Shown: positions 3,461-63,605 of the stretch, piece by piece
Layout of the letters: every line of letters starts with the position of its first letter
Position numbering within the stretch: the first letter of the stretch is position 1
NCBI GenBank assembly: GCA_049720475.1
Contig: JBNASH010000033.1
Span: 3,784 to 67,783, forward strand
DNA length: 64,000 nucleotides
Reading direction: 5' to 3'
From: Minisyncoccia bacterium
GTDB taxonomy: Bacteria; Patescibacteriota; Minisyncoccia; UBA6257; JAAZHW01
Notes under the pieces: generated by a model
What the model was told of the DNA's origin: nothing
What the model saw: the letters and a program-made list of their open reading frames with translations, nothing else
Databases searched by the model: none
Program-made: the position numbers and the translations under genes

Positions 3461-3570
3461 GTTAAAAAATAAATCTCTTTTTCATTGTTTCGTGCCGCCC
3501 ATCGCTATTCTAAAAAGAATAGCGAACCGACCTAAGGACCTCATTCTCAGCGAGAATGAGCGTCATCCTT

Positions 3571-5095
<1,525 letters not shown>

Positions 5096-5208
5096 AAAAA
5101 ATTTGATCTAACCCCATCCGATTATTATCGAATGGGACTAATACAACTCAAAGGACGACACGAAACAATGAAGAAAAAATTTATTTTTTGTTATTAATGT
5201 GCTAAAAA

Positions 5209-47069: not shown

Positions 47070-48557
47070 TTATTGGAAAATTAATTTGTCTCCAACAGCA
47101 ATTTCTACATCAGAATCAATTAATATTCCGCATTCTTTGCCTTCTAAGACTTCTTTACTATCAATTTTGTTGCATTGTAAATTTAGAATTTTGCCGCGGC
47201 CAACAATTTCTTCTCCTCGCATTATTTTCACTTGCGCGCCCTTAACAATGCGGCCGTTAATAACTTTTCCACCAATTACTTGCTCGCTGCGTTTTTTGCT
47301 GAATAAAGCCAAAATTTCAACTTCTCCTTTAATCGGCGGCTCTTGCGGTTTAAACATCGTCTCTATTTCCTCTTTTAAGAATTTTTCCATTTCATAAATA
47401 ATATCAAAAGTATAAACGCGAATATTTTTAGCTTGAATAATTGTTTGCAAATCTTTTGGAATTTTAATACGGAAACCCAAAATTACTGCTGGCGCTGTTT
47501 CTGCCAAAGAAACATCCGAAACAAAAACATCACCAATTGATTCACTGATAATTTTAAGCGCTGTTCCTTCTGGTAAAGTTAAATTATTTAAAATTTTCTT
47601 CATTGCCTCAAGCGAACCAACAACATCGGCTTTTAAAATAAGATTGAGAGTATTCTCTTCGGTGGTTTTCTTTTGGATCTCAATTTGTTTTGTCTCTCTA
47701 ATTTTTTTCAATTCTTCTTCTGTTTTTTCGCCAACAAAAAATTCTTCGCCCACCTGAGGCATATCCTTAAAACCAACAATTAAAACGGGTGAGGAAAAAG
47801 TGGCTTCTTTAATTTGCTTGCCATTGCAATCCTCTAACAAACGCACTTTTCCTAAACTTGTTTCCGTATAAATTGGGTCGCCGATTTTTAAAACGCCATT
47901 CTTAATAACGGCACTCACTAAAATTCCGCGTTTATTATCAAATTTAGTTTCTAAAATGACACCATTTGCCGGCCCATCTTTTTCAGCCGTCAAATTTTCC
48001 ATATCAGCCACCAAAAGAATTAATTCCAATAATTCTTCAATATTTTTGCCTTCTTTGGCAGAGATATTAACGATCGGCACATTACCACCCCATCCCTCAA
48101 CAAAAACTCCCAATTCCGCTAATTGAGTCTTTACTCTGTCTGGATTGGCCTCGGCTCGATCAATTTTATTCAAGGCAACAATAAAGGGAATTTTAGCTTG
48201 TTGAATATGATTTAATGCCTCAATTGTTTGCGGCTTAACGCCTTCATCAGCCGCAATAATTAAAATTGCTACATCACCTACTTGCGCCCCTCGCGCTCTA
48301 ATAGCAGAAAAGGCTTCGTGTCCTGGTGTATCAATAAAAGTAATTTTTCGGCCATTGTATTCTGGATTTTTGCTCTGAACAGTAATTTCATAAGCGCCGA
48401 TATGCTGGGTAATTCCGCCTGCTTCTTTAGCTGCCACATTGCTTTTGCGAATGGTATCCAAAAGAGTGGTTTTCCCATGATCAATATGGCCCATTACTAC
48501 AACAATCGGTGGTCTGGAAACTTGATTATTTAATTGTTGCCCTTTTTTATCTGCCAT
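47070..48557 (-). CDS. infB: Translation initiation factor IF-2 (short form)
   Basis: [37 protein letters not shown] chose the ATG at 48557 (MADKKGQQ). Confidence 0.95.
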
Positions 48558-48623
48558 AATTTTTATTTCCAAACTATTTTTTGTGTTTTTATCTTATCAC
48601 AAAAAATTCTTTTCGTCCACTTT

Positions 48624-48656
48624 AAAAAACAAAAAGGGACTCAAATGAGTCCCTTT
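48624..48656 (-). terminator. Intrinsic terminator of cassette B
   Basis: Minus strand AAAGGGACTC-ATTT-GAGTCCCTTT followed by TTGTTTTTT. Confidence 0.75.
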
Positions 48657-48663
48657 ATAAAAA

Positions 48664-49077
48664 TTACCTTCTTTCCACATACAATCGCCCATCCGACCCT
48701 TGTCGGATGGTGAAAGTATAAGAATATCTGGAATACGAGGAATAAACCCAGAGGGCATCGCTATAAGCGAAGCCCTTTTTATCAATAATCTGAAGTGCTA
48801 CTTGAACGCCATAATAAGATCCATTCCATAATCCTCCAACCCATTTTCCGTAGGATTCCACCACCCCTTTCTCTTCCCCATCAATTAAAACATAAAAATA
48901 ATAAGGAGTGGCGTTGATTACAGTAATACGAGTCGTCTGGATGGGAAGATTGGTATCAACCGCCATCGTTATCCCCAGCGGGGTACAGCTGGAAAACAAC
49001 AGCAGAGCCGCCAACAACCCTAGCAATATCAAAACAATAAAAAATCTCCTTGCGAATTCTTCAATTAATTCTTTCAT
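48664..49077 (-). CDS. Putative lipoprotein (137 aa), cassette B gene 2
   Basis: ATG at 49077 is preceded by TTTAAAAGGAGGAAAAAA. Signal peptide with lipobox LLLFSSC. The mature part is Tyr/Gly-rich and beta-like. Confidence 0.6.
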   Translation of the reverse strand: MKELIEEFARRFFIVLILLGLLAALLLFSSCTPLGITMAVDTNLPIQTTRITVINATPYYFYVLIDGEEKGVVESYGKWVGGLWNGSYYGVQVALQIIDKKGFAYSDALWVYSSYSRYSYTFTIRQGSDGRLYVERR

Positions 49078-49103
49078 TTTTTTCCTCCTTTTAAATTTTA
49101 AAA

Positions 49104-49628
49104 TTAAAATAAAATTTCGTTTTTCCAAAAATGTCTCTGCCAACCATGGGTTGGGGGGACATTAATACCCATTCGTCTGGCCAGTTTAACAACTTCATAA
49201 TCTAAGGAAAGTAATTTTACTTTGCCTTCGCCGCCATTTTTGAGGGCAATGGCTGTCGCCACCACCCGAATATCTGCTATAGAAATGGACTTTAAATTCA
49301 TTTTTTGTGCCTCTAAAATCAAGCTGGGTACAATCCTTTTTCGATAGGATCCAGCAACCTTCCATTCGCCGGATCTAATTTTCTTTTCAATCTGTGGCCA
49401 TCGCCTTAACGCTAAAGCGATGGTTTTTTTCCACTTTTTAACCTCTCCCTTTTGCGGCTTAGTTTTTAGCCGCTTTAATTTTTCAAGATCGGCGGCATTT
49501 CGAAGTTCTTCCACTACTGCCCGCGGAACTACTATCTGAATCTCATCTTCTTTTCCCAACATTTCCACAAAAGCAAAACTTCTCAACAACATATTACTAT
49601 CAACAATCAAAAACAACCTTTCTTCCAT
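49104..49628 (-). CDS. PIN-domain protein (putative ribonuclease) with a ~60-aa basic insertion, cassette B gene 1
   Basis: Acidic quartet in the expected order: LIVDSN, VVEEL, IADIRVVATA, LLSLDYE. ATG preceded by AAATAAAAGGAGGAAGAA. Confidence 0.65.
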   Translation of the reverse strand: MEERLFLIVDSNMLLRSFAFVEMLGKEDEIQIVVPRAVVEELRNAADLEKLKRLKTKPQKGEVKKWKKTIALALRRWPQIEKKIRSGEWKVAGSYRKRIVPSLILEAQKMNLKSISIADIRVVATAIALKNGGEGKVKLLSLDYEVVKLARRMGINVPPTHGWQRHFWKNEILF

Positions 49629-49679
49629 TTCTTCCTCCTTTTATTTAATTTTTAAAGATCTCTTTTCTTTGCCGCCTAA

Positions 49680-49707
49680 ATTATAATAGATTTTAATCTT
49701 TTGTCAA
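49680..49707 (-). promoter_or_regulatory. Consensus promoter TTGACA-16-TATAAT of cassette B
   Basis: Minus-strand TTGACA 49707..49702 (overlaps the stop of the upstream rluD-like gene) and TATAAT 49685..49680. Confidence 0.65.
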
Positions 49708-50414
49708 ATGTTTGGACTGCCGCCTGTTTTTCTTAAAACAAACTCTAAATCTTGAGGTAAATCACTTTCTAAATGCAAAACTGTGCCATTGGGCGCTTTA
49801 AATTCCAAAAAATAAGCATGTAAAAATAAACGCGGGGATAAATCGTTTTTCTTCCGACCATAAATTTTATCTCCCACAATCGGATGCCCAATACTTGATA
49901 AATGAACTCTAATTTGATGGGTTCGACCGGTTTTAGGGAAAACTTTTAATAAAGAATATTTTTCGCCTTCAAACTCCCAACTATCGACCACTTCATATTC
50001 AGTAATGGCCTCTTTTAATTCCTTCATCTTCTTAGCAGCCGTCGAACGCTTAATTGAAGAGGAAACAATGCCAATGGGTTTATCAATTATTCCTTTTTTG
50101 TTTTTAAACTCGCCATAAACTAAAGCTAAATATCCTTTTTTAATTTGATGTTCTTGAAAAAGTTTTTTGAAATATTCGAAAGCTTTTTGATTTTTAGCAA
50201 CCAAAAGCAAACCGGAAGTTTCTCTGTCCAAACGATGAACAATGCCCGGCCGCGTTCTGTCCTCGCCTACATCTTTTATTTTAGGATAACGATTGAGTAA
50301 CCAATCAACCAGCGTTTTTTCATCTTTTTTTGCTGAATGCACCAAAAGGCCATTGGGTTTATTCACCACTAAAAAATCTTCATTTTCAAAAATAATTTTA
50401 ATTTTTTCCAGCAT
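49704..50414 (-). CDS. RluA/RluD-family pseudouridine synthase (no N-terminal S4 domain)
   Basis: FLVVNKPNGLLVH...GIVHRLDRETSGLLLVAKN...RTHQIRVHL. Confidence 0.85.
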   Translation of the reverse strand: MLEKIKIIFENEDFLVVNKPNGLLVHSAKKDEKTLVDWLLNRYPKIKDVGEDRTRPGIVHRLDRETSGLLLVAKNQKAFEYFKKLFQEHQIKKGYLALVYGEFKNKKGIIDKPIGIVSSSIKRSTAAKKMKELKEAITEYEVVDSWEFEGEKYSLLKVFPKTGRTHQIRVHLSSIGHPIVGDKIYGRKKNDLSPRLFLHAYFLEFKAPNGTVLHLESDLPQDLEFVLRKTGGSPNI

Positions 50415-62810: not shown

Positions 62811-63605
62811 TTAATTTTCTTCTTGGAAGTCCCTCAGGGACAGGCCCCGAGGGTTTTTTTCTACCTCATCCGCTGCCCGAAGGGGCAATTCCTTGCCCCT
62901 TCTCGCCTCAACCACCCTTCTTTTTTCTTTTATTTTTTTATTTTTAGAAGGGGAAGGGGAGGCAGGGGAGGCAGGCTCCGGTGGTTGTGGCCGAATTAGT
63001 TGCGGTGGACGGGTTGGGATTGGGACTTTTTTAAGCCCCGCTTCCCATTTGGGGTTGGGAAGTCTCCGATCGGACTCAAAGAGTTCGACCGAGACTTTCA
63101 GGATTTCCTCGTCAACCTGACCGACGAGGAAATCCCGCAGGGATTCCTTATCCCGCACATAGTGCGGGATATCAATCATTACTCTCTCTCTTTCTAAGAG
63201 AGAGTAATGATTTCCCTGACGGGCTACCCCTAGGTAGTCCGCCACCAGTTTCCGGCCATGGAACCGTACAACGGTCCCATTCCGGAAAAGAAGTAACCAC
63301 TTCCCCACTTTATTGTTAAAGTGGGGAGTGATAAGTTTGTTCTCCCCAACCACTACAGCCCAGCCCTTGGGACCGGGCACAGAAAGGGAAATCTGAAACC
63401 ACTGGGGCTGCCCCAGTTGGGGCAAAAACACCCAAGGTTTCACAATTCCCCGCTCTACCACCACGCACGGCACTTTCAGCCGTGCTTTTAAAGGATCAAA
63501 GTGGACGCCCTGAAGGGCGCCACTTTTAATCCTCTCCAGAATGTCCTGCGGTTTGGGAATGCGTTCCCAAACCGCCCAGATTTTCAAAAAATTACTCCTG
63601 ATCAT
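62811..63605 (-). CDS. Hypothetical protein (264 aa) of the GC-rich island: beta-rich N-domain, Pro-rich linker, basic tail
   Basis: ATG preceded by TTAAAAATTTAATAGGAGGTTTTAA. Plausible protein composition. The ORF is overlaid by many perfect hairpins (see findings). Confidence 0.55.
   Translation of the reverse strand: MIRSNFLKIWAVWERIPKPQDILERIKSGALQGVHFDPLKARLKVPCVVVERGIVKPWVFLPQLGQPQWFQISLSVPGPKGWAVVVGENKLITPHFNNKVGKWLLLFRNGTVVRFHGRKLVADYLGVARQGNHYSLLERERVMIDIPHYVRDKESLRDFLVGQVDEEILKVSVELFESDRRLPNPKWEAGLKKVPIPTRPPQLIRPQPPEPASPASPSPSKNKKIKEKRRVVEARRGKELPLRAADEVEKNPRGLSLRDFQEEN
63101..63212. repeat. Three consecutive perfect inverted repeats (13, 10 and 16 bp stems) inside the ORF
   Basis: GGATTTCCTCGTC-N9-GACGAGGAAATCC (63101..63135); TATCCCGCAC-ATA-GTGCGGGATA (63149..63171); AATCATTACTCTCTCT-N7-AGAGAGAGTAATGATT (63174..63212). 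Confidence 0.9.

Follow-up and report, generated by a model that had tools for sequence, protein, structure and literature searches.

A bicistronic operon for a predicted PIN-domain endoribonuclease and a putative lipoprotein in a small Patescibacteria lineage

Introduction

Members of the Patescibacteria (candidate phyla radiation, CPR) are ultra-small, abundant and mostly uncultured bacteria whose surface biology and RNA metabolism are poorly understood. In a 64-kb stretch of DNA from this group (the window, meaning here the whole stretch that was analysed), a gene for a PIN-domain protein is followed by a gene for a putative lipoprotein. What kind of unit this pair represents, and whether it is resident or acquired, is the question raised by the locus. 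The initial annotation, made from the sequence alone, described a G+C-rich cassette inserted between infB and a pseudouridine synthase gene, with possible antisense RNA signals in its coding regions. The question also concerns annotation practice, as a PIN gene in a neat two-gene operon is easily mis-called a toxin-antitoxin module.

Organization of the operon

All genes of the locus are on the minus strand (Table 1). The operon promoter matches the sigma-70 consensus at 12 of 12 hexamer positions and is the only such match in the window, where 0.03 perfect matches would be expected. The TGA stop (49704-49706) of the upstream RluA-type gene sits within the -35 hexamer, and the promoter is located in the 3' end of rlu. 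Each of the 20 fetched loci with an rlu/PIN junction contains exactly one perfect match, located at this same junction. The 75 nt upstream of the PIN gene contain only the promoter and the Shine-Dalgarno (SD) site. Between the window and a near-identical relative (L033), the leader has diverged, with a 7-nt indel among the changes, and the promoter is identical. The spacer between the two genes is 10-27 nt long in most relatives and carries an identical SD site; in two loci (L010 and L015), the spacer region holds an additional 38-aa mini-ORF.

At the other end, the unit is closed ahead of infB by a terminator with a 10-bp stem (5 G-C pairs, 48656-48633) followed by a T-run. All relatives have a hairpin and a T-run at this position, with stem sequences that differ between lineages yet stay complementary. 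The infB gene appears to have its own promoter. Thus, the consensus promoter overlapping the upstream stop, the two perfect SD leaders (AAGGAGG ahead of both genes), the strong terminator and the self-contained transcription unit of the initial annotation were all borne out. The wider neighbourhood consists of rlu, infB, a Vut_1 transporter gene, queA, tyrS and tRNA genes, and a 16S gene is present in the same window (3569-5099).

Table 1. Features of the operon and its upstream neighbour (window positions)
Feature	Position	Strand	Details
RluA-family pseudouridine synthase gene (rlu), upstream	49704..50414	-	Annotated as PF00849 in related loci; always next to the pair
Sigma-70 consensus promoter	49680..49707	-	TTGACA 49707-49702, 16 nt, TATAAT 49685-49680; 12/12 match
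5' untranslated leader	49629..49679	-	AAGGAGG SD 49640-49634, 5 nt upstream of the PIN ATG at 49628; read from sequence
PIN-domain gene (predicted endoribonuclease), 174 aa	49104..49628	-	
Intercistronic spacer, 26 nt	49078..49103	-	AAGGAGG SD 49090-49084, 6 nt upstream of the lipoprotein ATG at 49077
Lipoprotein gene, 137 aa	48664..49077	-	
Intrinsic terminator	48623..48656	-	AAAGGGACTCA-tt-TGAGTCCCTTT then TTGTTTTTT

The PIN-domain protein

The product of the first gene matches the Pfam family PIN_4 (PF13638) with E = 4e-9 and 37.3 bits, above the gathering cut-off of 21.9, and the match aligns residues 7-157 with profile positions 1-128 of 132. The same family is precomputed for all orthologues. 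The PIN assignment made earlier is confirmed by this match, and the predicted structure has the alpha/beta/alpha sandwich of the PIN fold. Its nearest neighbours are SMG6 and NOB1, with SMG6 outscoring Nob1 in structure comparison, and the protein groups with the PIN domains of SMG6, Nob1 and Dis3, above VapCs. A likeness to HARP (protein-only RNase P, PIN_5), suggested by a Foldseek match, was rejected on its rank below many other PINs; a PIN_5 profile match combined with greatest structural similarity to Aq880 or Hhal HARP was not seen.

Three acidic residues (D10, D119 and D143) are invariant and a fourth (E41) is nearly so in 15 sequences down to 24% identity, a conservation that fits the acidic metal site of PIN domains; these four are the predicted catalytic residues. 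The acidic quartet had been described as split by a basic insertion of about 60 residues. The quartet is intact and a helical segment of approximately residues 45-110 is indeed basic (20 K+R, net +14), but the size of the insertion was overstated, as the protein exceeds the PIN_4 profile by only about 23 residues across the matched region. The protein has a pI of 10.2, contains no cysteine, ends 30 residues past the last PIN acidic residue (D143) and carries a conserved C-terminal tail (VPPTHGWxRHFWKxEIL). It is a single-domain protein, for which Pfam and NCBIfam searches match PIN families only, the NCBIfam search yielding just a sub-threshold match to PRK12496.

As a single query against PDB sequences, the protein gave noise only (E >= 0.7). 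The family profile matches the PIN domains of MJ1533, Dis3 and Pyrococcus horikoshii Nob1, with MJ1533 as the closest solved sequence relative (E = 2e-5). The family is very rare, with eight clusters below E = 1e-10 among 1.84 billion representatives. A further homologue search with a wide PIN alignment, limited by its word index, gave almost no additional members.

These matches raise the possibility that the protein is a bacterial analogue of Nob1, that is, a site-specific rRNA-maturation endonuclease acting, for example, at the 16S 3' end, with the lipoprotein as an unrelated passenger in the operon. The family profile matches the Nob1 entry 2lcq at E = 0.0016, PIN_6 is matched weakly (E = 0.003, residues 7-59 only), an orthologue (P0004) is named 'rRNA maturation endonuclease Nob1' by JGI, and the gene neighbourhood given above is in keeping with such a role. 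Against this, the zinc ribbon is absent because the protein has no cysteine, the PIN_6 match of 18.3 bits is under the gathering cut-off of 27, and SMG6 scores better than Nob1. The confinement of the family to a small clade would be odd for a core maturation step, and PIN alleles are shuffled between strains. A Nob1-like role is thus considered improbable.

The lipoprotein

The second product starts with MKELIEEFARR, followed by a hydrophobic helix and the lipobox L-F-S-S-C31. The lipobox (LLLFSSC) had been recognized earlier, and its cysteine is present in every full-length homologue. With this N-terminal signal peptide, lipobox and invariant cysteine, the protein has the features of a lipoprotein and is probably lipid-modified. 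In the structure model, an N-terminal signal/transmembrane helix (residues 2-29) precedes a generic eight-strand beta-sandwich rich in Tyr and Trp. Pfam searches with 18 homologues, and a search of their profile against the PDB, gave nothing significant that would place the protein in a sequence family. Genes for Lgt, LspA and YbeY were absent from the 10 ORFs scanned in the 64-kb window, a result that speaks for these ORFs only.

Conservation of the pair

The order rlu>PIN>lipoprotein was found in every recovered locus (L001-L015, L017, L024-L028 and L033); one further contig (L034) stops just after the PIN gene. Distant PIN loci were recovered by a metagenome profile scan with a 5-sequence alignment, and the arrangement, with the same perfect promoter and the terminator, is kept down to 30% PIN identity. 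In L024-L028 the three genes are intact, with ftsH upstream of them and no infB downstream. The pair thus survives rearrangement of both flanks. The locus is single-copy, was never absent, duplicated or moved in about 15 lineages, and is under purifying selection (dN/dS 0.09-0.21).

An empty rlu-infB site was not seen in the infB genome scan, which gave only three close relatives, two of them with the pair. In the third (L016), a 1.9-kb contig carries tig-clpP-infB, a rearranged order and not an empty rlu-infB junction. The view that the pair was inserted between infB and the pseudouridine synthase gene is not supported, as the pair has a fixed place beside rlu in all relatives, including distant ones without infB downstream. 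Both genes co-occur in every related locus, and such strict co-occurrence, even where the surroundings are rearranged, may point to a functional link.

Base composition, hairpins and the question of mobility

The count of 26 G+C in the 60 nt at 48721-48780 is exact. The operon has a G+C content of 38.3% versus 33.8% for the window, which is in the top 4-7% of equal-sized windows, and the GC3 values of the two genes rank second and third among 60 ORFs. The raised GC3 is common to all orthologues and is therefore an old property of the genes.

Hairpins in the coding regions, noted initially, do exist at 48689-48710 (9/9), 49398-49423 (10/11), 49454-49473 and 48758-48770. Terminator-like hairpins number four in 1.1 kb, two per strand, one of which is the operon's own terminator. 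Their density is weaker evidence than the description implied, since 3 per kb, compared with 0.67 per kb window-wide, is reached by 6% of 1-kb windows; the coding-region hairpins are barely above chance. Two of them (H3 and H4) persist in the three closest lineages, each hairpin with one G-C to A-T double change in L006. Overall, the hairpins are kept in the nearest subclade only and are lost in most relatives. The T-runs that follow them on the plus strand correspond, on the coding strand, to AAA/AAG codons for Lys in the basic segment. The sole plus-strand promoter-like site upstream of the hairpins is a 9/12 match and is not conserved, and Rfam searches at gathering and permissive thresholds found no RNA family in or antisense to the operon. 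The idea of antisense terminators or small antisense RNAs is not upheld by these results, and the hairpins and antisense promoter were rejected as functional elements on their lack of conservation and on the window-wide density.

A recently acquired, G+C-richer mobile cassette between rlu and infB, with the hairpins serving as antisense terminators or small antisense RNAs, would account for a G+C content and GC3 above those of the flanks, for the private promoter and terminator, for the four terminator-like hairpins and for the retention of H3 and H4, with their double changes in L006, in the closest lineages. It is nevertheless very improbable. All relatives, even those with 30% PIN identity, have the unit at the same site, all orthologues share the raised GC3, and there are no repeats, integrase genes or viral matches. 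The limited retention and ordinary density of the hairpins, the unconserved 9/12 promoter, the Lys-codon origin of the T-runs and the empty Rfam searches also stand against it.

Toxin-antitoxin and phage-related readings

The tight two-gene operon is the feature that recommends a non-canonical, VapBC-like toxin-antitoxin system, in which the PIN protein would be the toxin and its antidote either the downstream protein or an unrecognized RNA or peptide. The initial annotation had noted that the arrangement is not a classical VapBC and proposed a check for an antitoxin-like partner; this view proved correct. No small gene for a DNA-binding antitoxin (AbrB, RHH, PhD or MerR type) lies upstream or downstream, and the partner of the PIN gene encodes instead a protein with a signal peptide, a lipobox and a beta-sandwich fold. 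The patchy, multi-copy or mobile distribution of VapBC loci is not seen either, as the locus is single-copy, vertically inherited and fixed in position in all relatives. Partner alleles do not co-vary (see below), and the PIN protein groups with SMG6, Nob1 and Dis3 PINs above VapCs. Of all the readings considered, this one is given the least credence.

Searches for defence or phage relatives were similarly negative. Neither protein matched a PADLOC model (PADLOC-DB v2) at E <= 1 or a PHROGs phage family, and IMG/VR scans with both proteins found no true viral relative, one 24-residue match being disregarded.

Allele exchange between strains

Where strains are 97-100% identical in the flanks, the operon stands out as a mosaic island of divergence, as seen from sliding identity and dS in five close pairs. 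The dS values are 0.007-0.2 in the flanks, from 0.4 (0.41) to saturated in the lipoprotein gene and up to 1.0 in the PIN gene. In the pair L010/L003, PIN dS is 1.0 versus 0.04 for rlu; the PIN genes share 75% identity and the lipoprotein genes, over their 5' half, 92-100%. Between L003 and L013, identity is 99% for PIN and 83% for the lipoprotein. The gene trees are discordant and the alleles of the two genes assort independently, and therefore there is no cognate specificity between them.

Exchange of alleles between close strains is much more extensive in the operon than in the neighbouring genes. The operon is a hot spot of such homologous replacement, chiefly in the region for the mature lipoprotein. 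The contigs are metagenomic, and strain-collapsed assembly could sharpen some of the mosaicism but cannot create the divergent alleles themselves. The initial 'cassette' idea and G+C count are right in one respect: the operon behaves as a unit of allele exchange between strains and has a conserved, raised GC3, but it is not a recent insertion.

Such diversity would suit a conflict module with two components, serving for example in defence, abortive infection or exclusion. The hypervariable surface lipoprotein would then confront or block an invader at the envelope, with the PIN RNase as cytoplasmic effector, and an arms race would keep both diverse. Both genes, and not the lipoprotein gene alone, diverge between near-identical flanks; the pair is predicted to be strictly co-transcribed and outlasts changes on both sides; the family is rare and clade-restricted; and GC3 is raised. 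PIN nucleases are also common effectors of conflict systems (Matelska et al., 2017; PMC5499597). Weighing against this reading, no PADLOC model, phage family or viral copy was matched, and typical defence islands do not show the constancy of this locus, which is never absent, duplicated or moved across about 15 lineages. The independent assortment of alleles is unfavourable as well, a perfect promoter, if strong and constitutive, fits badly with an unrestrained toxic effector, and the two products are predicted in different compartments. A conflict module is thus unlikely, though less so than the alternatives discussed above. In its fullest form, which we likewise regard as a minority possibility, the pair would be an undescribed, Patescibacteria-specific conflict or recognition module at a fixed site, expressed from the sole perfect consensus promoter of the region and coupling an envelope event sensed or blocked by the lipoprotein to cytoplasmic RNA cleavage. 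Balancing selection and cassette-like homologous exchange of alleles would keep the polymorphism, with the promoter/rlu end and the terminator/infB promoter as recombination arms.

Proposed function

The explanation that we find somewhat easier to accept than to doubt is that the pair forms a bicistronic operon, inherited vertically and specific to a small Paceibacteria/Minisyncoccia (Patescibacteria) lineage, encoding an RNase of the SMG6/NOB1 class and a surface lipoprotein and diversified by recombination, rather than a mobile cassette or toxin-antitoxin module. The first gene would encode a PIN endoribonuclease of the SMG6/NOB1/Dis3 (PIN_4-like) class that resides in the cytoplasm and has an intact catalytic site, with the basic helical elaboration as a likely RNA-binding surface. 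Such a protein may act in specific RNA processing or turnover and not as a growth-arresting toxin. The second gene would encode an exported, lipid-anchored beta-sandwich protein on the cell surface. So exposed, it may be under diversifying or frequency-dependent selection and could be an adhesin or a phage or host target. The two proteins are probably co-expressed, but not as a cognate, allele-matched pair, and a functional link between them is unproven.

Some observations count against this vertically inherited operon as the full explanation. Allele shuffling would not be expected of an RNase with a housekeeping role, and the PIN divergence in L010/L003 may go beyond what hitch-hiking with the lipoprotein can account for. 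The rarity of the family is more in keeping with an accessory than with a core role, and the strict co-occurrence of the two genes hints at a link that this explanation does not include.

The lipoprotein is small, probably strongly expressed and exchanged as alleles between strains, which makes it a candidate host or phage interface and a possible strain-typing marker. Its partner is a predicted stand-alone bacterial PIN RNase of the SMG6/NOB1 class, which is typical of eukaryotes and archaea. If both genes do work together, they would represent a new coupling of the envelope to RNA cleavage.

Comparison with known systems

The PIN domain of the SMG6/EST1A type falls in the group PIN_4.COG1875, and the acidic site of SMG6 consists of D1251, E1282, D1353 and D1392 (Matelska et al., 2017; PMC5499597). 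The same four-residue pattern is formed here by D10, E41, D119 and D143. In contrast to SMG6/EST1A, the present protein is a stand-alone bacterial protein of 174 aa that lacks 14-3-3/TPR, PhoH and TRAM partner domains. Its basic helical segment is peculiar to the family, its C-terminal tail is conserved and rich in Trp and His, and the family is restricted to a small Patescibacteria clade.

In eukaryotes and archaea, the endonuclease Nob1 (PIN_6/COG1439) acts at the 3' end of 18S/16S rRNA. The likeness to Nob1 lies in the profile match to 2lcq, the JGI name of an orthologue and a neighbourhood themed on translation and RNA modification; the differences are the missing four-Cys zinc ribbon, the PIN_6 score below cut-off and the narrow distribution. 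With VapC, the protein shares the fold, the metal-binding acidic residues and the two-gene operon. It differs from VapBC in having no VapB-type antitoxin, a partner predicted to be an exported lipoprotein, a fixed chromosomal position, a perfect promoter and unmatched alleles.

As a single-domain protein, it also has neither the C-terminal TRAM domain of PIN-TRAM (YacL) proteins nor the fused PhoH ATPase of PhoH2. The YacL-type PIN-TRAM protein TTHA0540 (3ix7) and the PIN-KH protein MJ1533 (3i8o) are presumably housekeeping RNases. Unlike these two, the present protein lacks a TRAM or KH RNA-binding domain, and the basic helical elaboration inside its PIN domain may take over that role.

The beta-sandwich of the lipoprotein resembles TssJ, IglE, the C-terminal domain of AlgF and the extracellular domains of PepT and HGSNAT at 7-15% identity, and TssJ and IglE are lipid-anchored, as is predicted here. 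No type VI secretion or alginate genes were found near the locus, and the resemblance is generic, with no functional implication.

Hypervariable loci at which alleles are exchanged between conserved flanks include surface antigens, porins, pilins and the agr and com specificity regions. The present operon shares with them a sharp island of synonymous and non-synonymous divergence within near-identical flanks and discordant gene trees. In contrast to the surface-antigen, agr and com loci, the island here holds the gene for a predicted cytoplasmic RNase besides that for a surface protein, and whereas the partners in agr and com co-vary, the PIN and lipoprotein alleles of this operon are inherited in independent combinations.

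Organization and conservation of the operon

In the Minisyncoccia/Paceibacteria MAG from which the window is drawn, a gene encoding a PIN-domain protein and a gene encoding a lipoprotein make up a two-gene operon that is conserved and has a consensus promoter. The initial annotation had described the promoter, two AAGGAGG sites, two ORFs and a terminator correctly, and had rightly called the unit self-contained, as it possesses its own 12/12 promoter, SD sites and terminator. A perfect TTGACA-N16-18-TATAAT occurs only once in the 64-kb window, against 0.03 occurrences expected from shuffles. The GTGGAC-N18-TAAGAT element beyond the terminator is conserved in five related loci (L001, L006, L007, L017 and L033) and probably serves infB itself as a promoter, its -10 being TG-extended; this would place infB outside the operon unit.

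Features of the operon, all on the minus strand, and of other minus-strand elements in the window
Feature	Position	Strand	Remarks
RluA-type pseudouridine synthase gene (rlu)	49704-50414	-	TGA stop inside TTGACA hexamer
Promoter	TTGACA 49707-49702, 16 bases, TATAAT 49685-49680	-	sigma-70 consensus 12/12
5' leader, ~50 nt	upstream of PIN ATG	-	AAGGAGG 5 nt from ATG
PIN gene	49104-49628	-	174-aa ORF
Intercistronic spacer, 26 nt	between PIN and lipoprotein ORFs	-	second AAGGAGG, 6 nt from lipoprotein ATG
Lipoprotein gene	48664-49077	-	137-aa ORF
Terminator	48656-48623	-	hairpin, 10-bp stem and T-run; ~65 nt before infB
GTGGAC-N18-TAAGAT element	48591-48620	-	…gtggacgaaaagaattttttgtgataagat…; between terminator and infB
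infB	47070-48557	-	short (~495 aa), GTPase domain almost at its start
264-aa ORF	62811-63605	-	51% G+C, GC3 0.55; no Pfam match; Pro/Lys/Arg-rich C-terminus

The PIN and lipoprotein genes are adjacent in every related locus fetched, and the order (Rce1-like)-rlu-PIN-lipoprotein-infB-(Vut_1)-queA-PolX is found in L001-L015, L017 and L033. Scanning metagenomes with distant relatives of the PIN protein yielded five further loci (L024-L028), identical to the window at 30-33% (PIN), 39-47% (lipoprotein) and 59-62% (rlu), in which rlu>PIN>lipoprotein is still whole, with ftsH upstream and a gene other than infB downstream. Exactly one 12/12 promoter, located at the rlu/PIN junction, is present in each of the 20 loci holding that junction, and in the distant set it also has an extended TG. 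The position of the terminator is likewise constant among relatives; its stem sequences vary between lineages with complementarity kept. The operon is thus not a recent insertion, and the initial suggestion that it was inserted between infB and the pseudouridine synthase gene is not borne out, since the pair and its promoter are fixed at rlu in all relatives. The promoter overlaps the rlu coding end, so that separation would damage one or the other; the persistence of the linkage may have this simple physical cause. Both genes are under purifying selection (dN/dS 0.09-0.21). In L016, where infB is 75% identical, that gene is preceded by tig-clpP and not by the PIN-lipoprotein pair.

No small DNA-binding-domain gene was found on either side of the operon, its proteins had no defence-system (PADLOC) or phage-family (PHROGs) match, and IMG/VR scans revealed no viral copy of either gene. 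Given these results and the conserved rlu linkage, a VapBC module was rejected, in keeping with the earlier remark that the arrangement is not classical VapBC.

Several relatives contain additional elements. L010 (~2136-2252) and L015 (~605-720) have an SD-preceded 38-aa mini-ORF (MKEKFRILIFLEDQDPFWVWAFWVEVGLFFLIIVLLLT) between the two genes, absent from the window; its product, conserved between these loci despite nucleotide differences, resembles a small membrane peptide. Between terminator and infB, directly after the terminator, L003, L007, L010, L013, L015 and L017 have a perfect palindromic repeat (…cagctgttatgctatagcataacagctg…), in some cases twice, of REP- or MITE-like appearance; the window, L001 and L006 lack it. 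In L024, the region 3760-3960 contains ~2.5 tandem copies of the -10 box and early leader (unit ~76 nt, starting gatataattgaggcg), so that TATAAT occurs three times and the leader is ~220 nt long. In the leaders of L006, L007 and L017, an SD-like box is duplicated and a tiny ORF is present (ATG TTT TTT AAA AAG TAA in L006; ATG TTC CTT TAA in L007 and L017), both features being absent from the window.

Allele exchange at the operon

Allele exchange is concentrated on the operon. The flanks of L033, a near-identical relative, are 98-100% identical to the window over ~7 kb (dS 0.007 for rlu and 0.038 for infB), and loss of identity is confined to the operon: 84% in the leader, 75-86% in the final third of PIN (dS 0.23 for aa 116-174 vs 0.014 for aa 1-115) and 77-85% in the mature part of the lipoprotein (dN 0.07, dS 0.71), with 94-98% in the signal-peptide part. 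This mosaic island of divergence is repeated in four further close pairs.

Identity within four further pairs of closely related loci
Pair	Flanks	PIN gene	Lipoprotein gene
L003/L013	99-100%	99%	5' two-thirds 66-79%
L007/L017	94-100%	93%	59-72%, dS saturated
L010/L003	rlu 99%, dS 0.04	75%, dS 1.0	5' half 92-100%
L010/L015	infB onward mostly 100%	mosaic with lipoprotein gene, 66-98%	mosaic with PIN gene, 66-98%

Synonymous divergence in the operon exceeds that of the flanks 2- to 100-fold; together with discordant relationships, this means that alleles have been imported, and faster amino-acid evolution alone is insufficient to explain it. Divergent tracts end close to the promoter and the terminator, both conserved, which suggests that these may act as homology arms for the exchange. 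In addition, PIN and lipoprotein alleles assort independently, contrary to what is expected of a cognate toxin-immunity type pairing. That the pair forms a conflict module appears unlikely, although the idea is kept alive because the PIN gene is itself allele-shuffled, yet the pair is never separated.

The raised G+C content reported earlier is real and conserved. GC3 is 0.43 in the lipoprotein gene and 0.38 in the PIN gene vs a mean of 0.275 (sd 0.057), ranking second and third among the 60 window ORFs. The excess is common to all orthologues, at 10-15 points over neighbouring genes per lineage (window and L001-L017 lineages), and could result from GC-biased gene conversion at a recombination hot spot or from selection on expression. 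The top compositional outlier of the 60 ORFs is the 264-aa ORF, a candidate foreign gene.

Coding-region hairpins were also proposed to stop or produce antisense transcripts. The inverted repeats exist: perfect hairpins (at least 6 bp, at least three G-C pairs) number 3 per kb in the operon vs 0.67 per kb window-wide, a level attained by 6% of 1-kb windows. An antisense role is not borne out, as the sole plus-strand promoter-like site upstream of them is a 9/12, unconserved match, the plus-strand T-runs are AAA/AAG lysine codons of the PIN basic segment, and Rfam showed no RNA family in or antisense to the operon. In codon-based alignments, the hairpin at 48689-48710 is partly conserved, only through conserved IRQ..DGR codons. 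Conservation of those at 49398-49423 and 49454-49473 does not extend beyond the three nearest lineages, the others having lost them; L006 has a single G-C to A-T double change in each. We treat the hairpins as by-products of coding sequence and give them little weight.

Encoded proteins

The lipobox assignment for the second gene stands. All full-length homologues begin with positive charge and a hydrophobic helix followed by a lipobox-like Cys (LFSSC, LLSSC, LLTSC or LSGC), then a conserved DTNLP..TTR and a C-terminal DGRLWVERR motif. In the model (pLDDT 83.9), a helix at 2-29 precedes eight strands that form a generic beta-sandwich; searches of Pfam, NCBIfam, PADLOC, PHROGs and PDB sequences gave no match.

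The first gene product is predicted to be a PIN nuclease of the SMG6/NOB1 class with catalytic residues intact, which upholds the PIN fold first proposed. It passes the Pfam PIN_4 cut-off (37.3 vs 21.9 bits). Modelling with AlphaFold from seven homologues gave a confident structure (pLDDT 88.8), for which Foldseek ranks the SMG6/EST1A PIN top (E = 8e-6). Among 15 family members with identity down to 24%, D10, D119 and D143 never vary, and E41 is conserved. The protein is strongly basic (pI 10.2; net +14 over residues 45-110). What was initially described as a ~60-aa basic insertion is not a single block: the protein exceeds the PIN_4 profile by only ~23 residues and its extra helices are dispersed (H48-55, a long H61-85 and H100-109). 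It contains no TRAM, KH or PhoH domain. The family is tiny: when all 1.84 billion representative proteins were read, only 21 matched at E <= 1e-3, of which 8 reached E <= 1e-10.

Proposed role and relation to known systems

We propose that the PIN protein may be a cytoplasmic metal-dependent endoribonuclease that binds RNA through its basic helices and acts on specific substrates, rather than a growth-arresting toxin. The lipoprotein would be acylated and surface-exposed, its diversity possibly upheld because phages, hosts or competitors exert frequency-dependent selection. Co-transcription would then provide common strong expression and not reflect a matched partnership.

The D10/E41/D119/D143 quartet agrees with the four acidic site residues that Matelska et al. 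(2017; PMC5499597) list for SMG6 and Nob1, and the family profile matched the PIN domains of MJ1533, Dis3 and Nob1 in PDB. A Nob1-like role in rRNA maturation is nevertheless quite improbable: Nob1 is defined by a zinc ribbon, which the PIN protein, having no cysteine, lacks, and so narrow a family does not fit a core function. The match to PIN_6 (Nob1) is below threshold. Overall, the operon combines two known types of component, a PIN_4-class RNase with a small lipoprotein, and its population-genetic behaviour is unusual.
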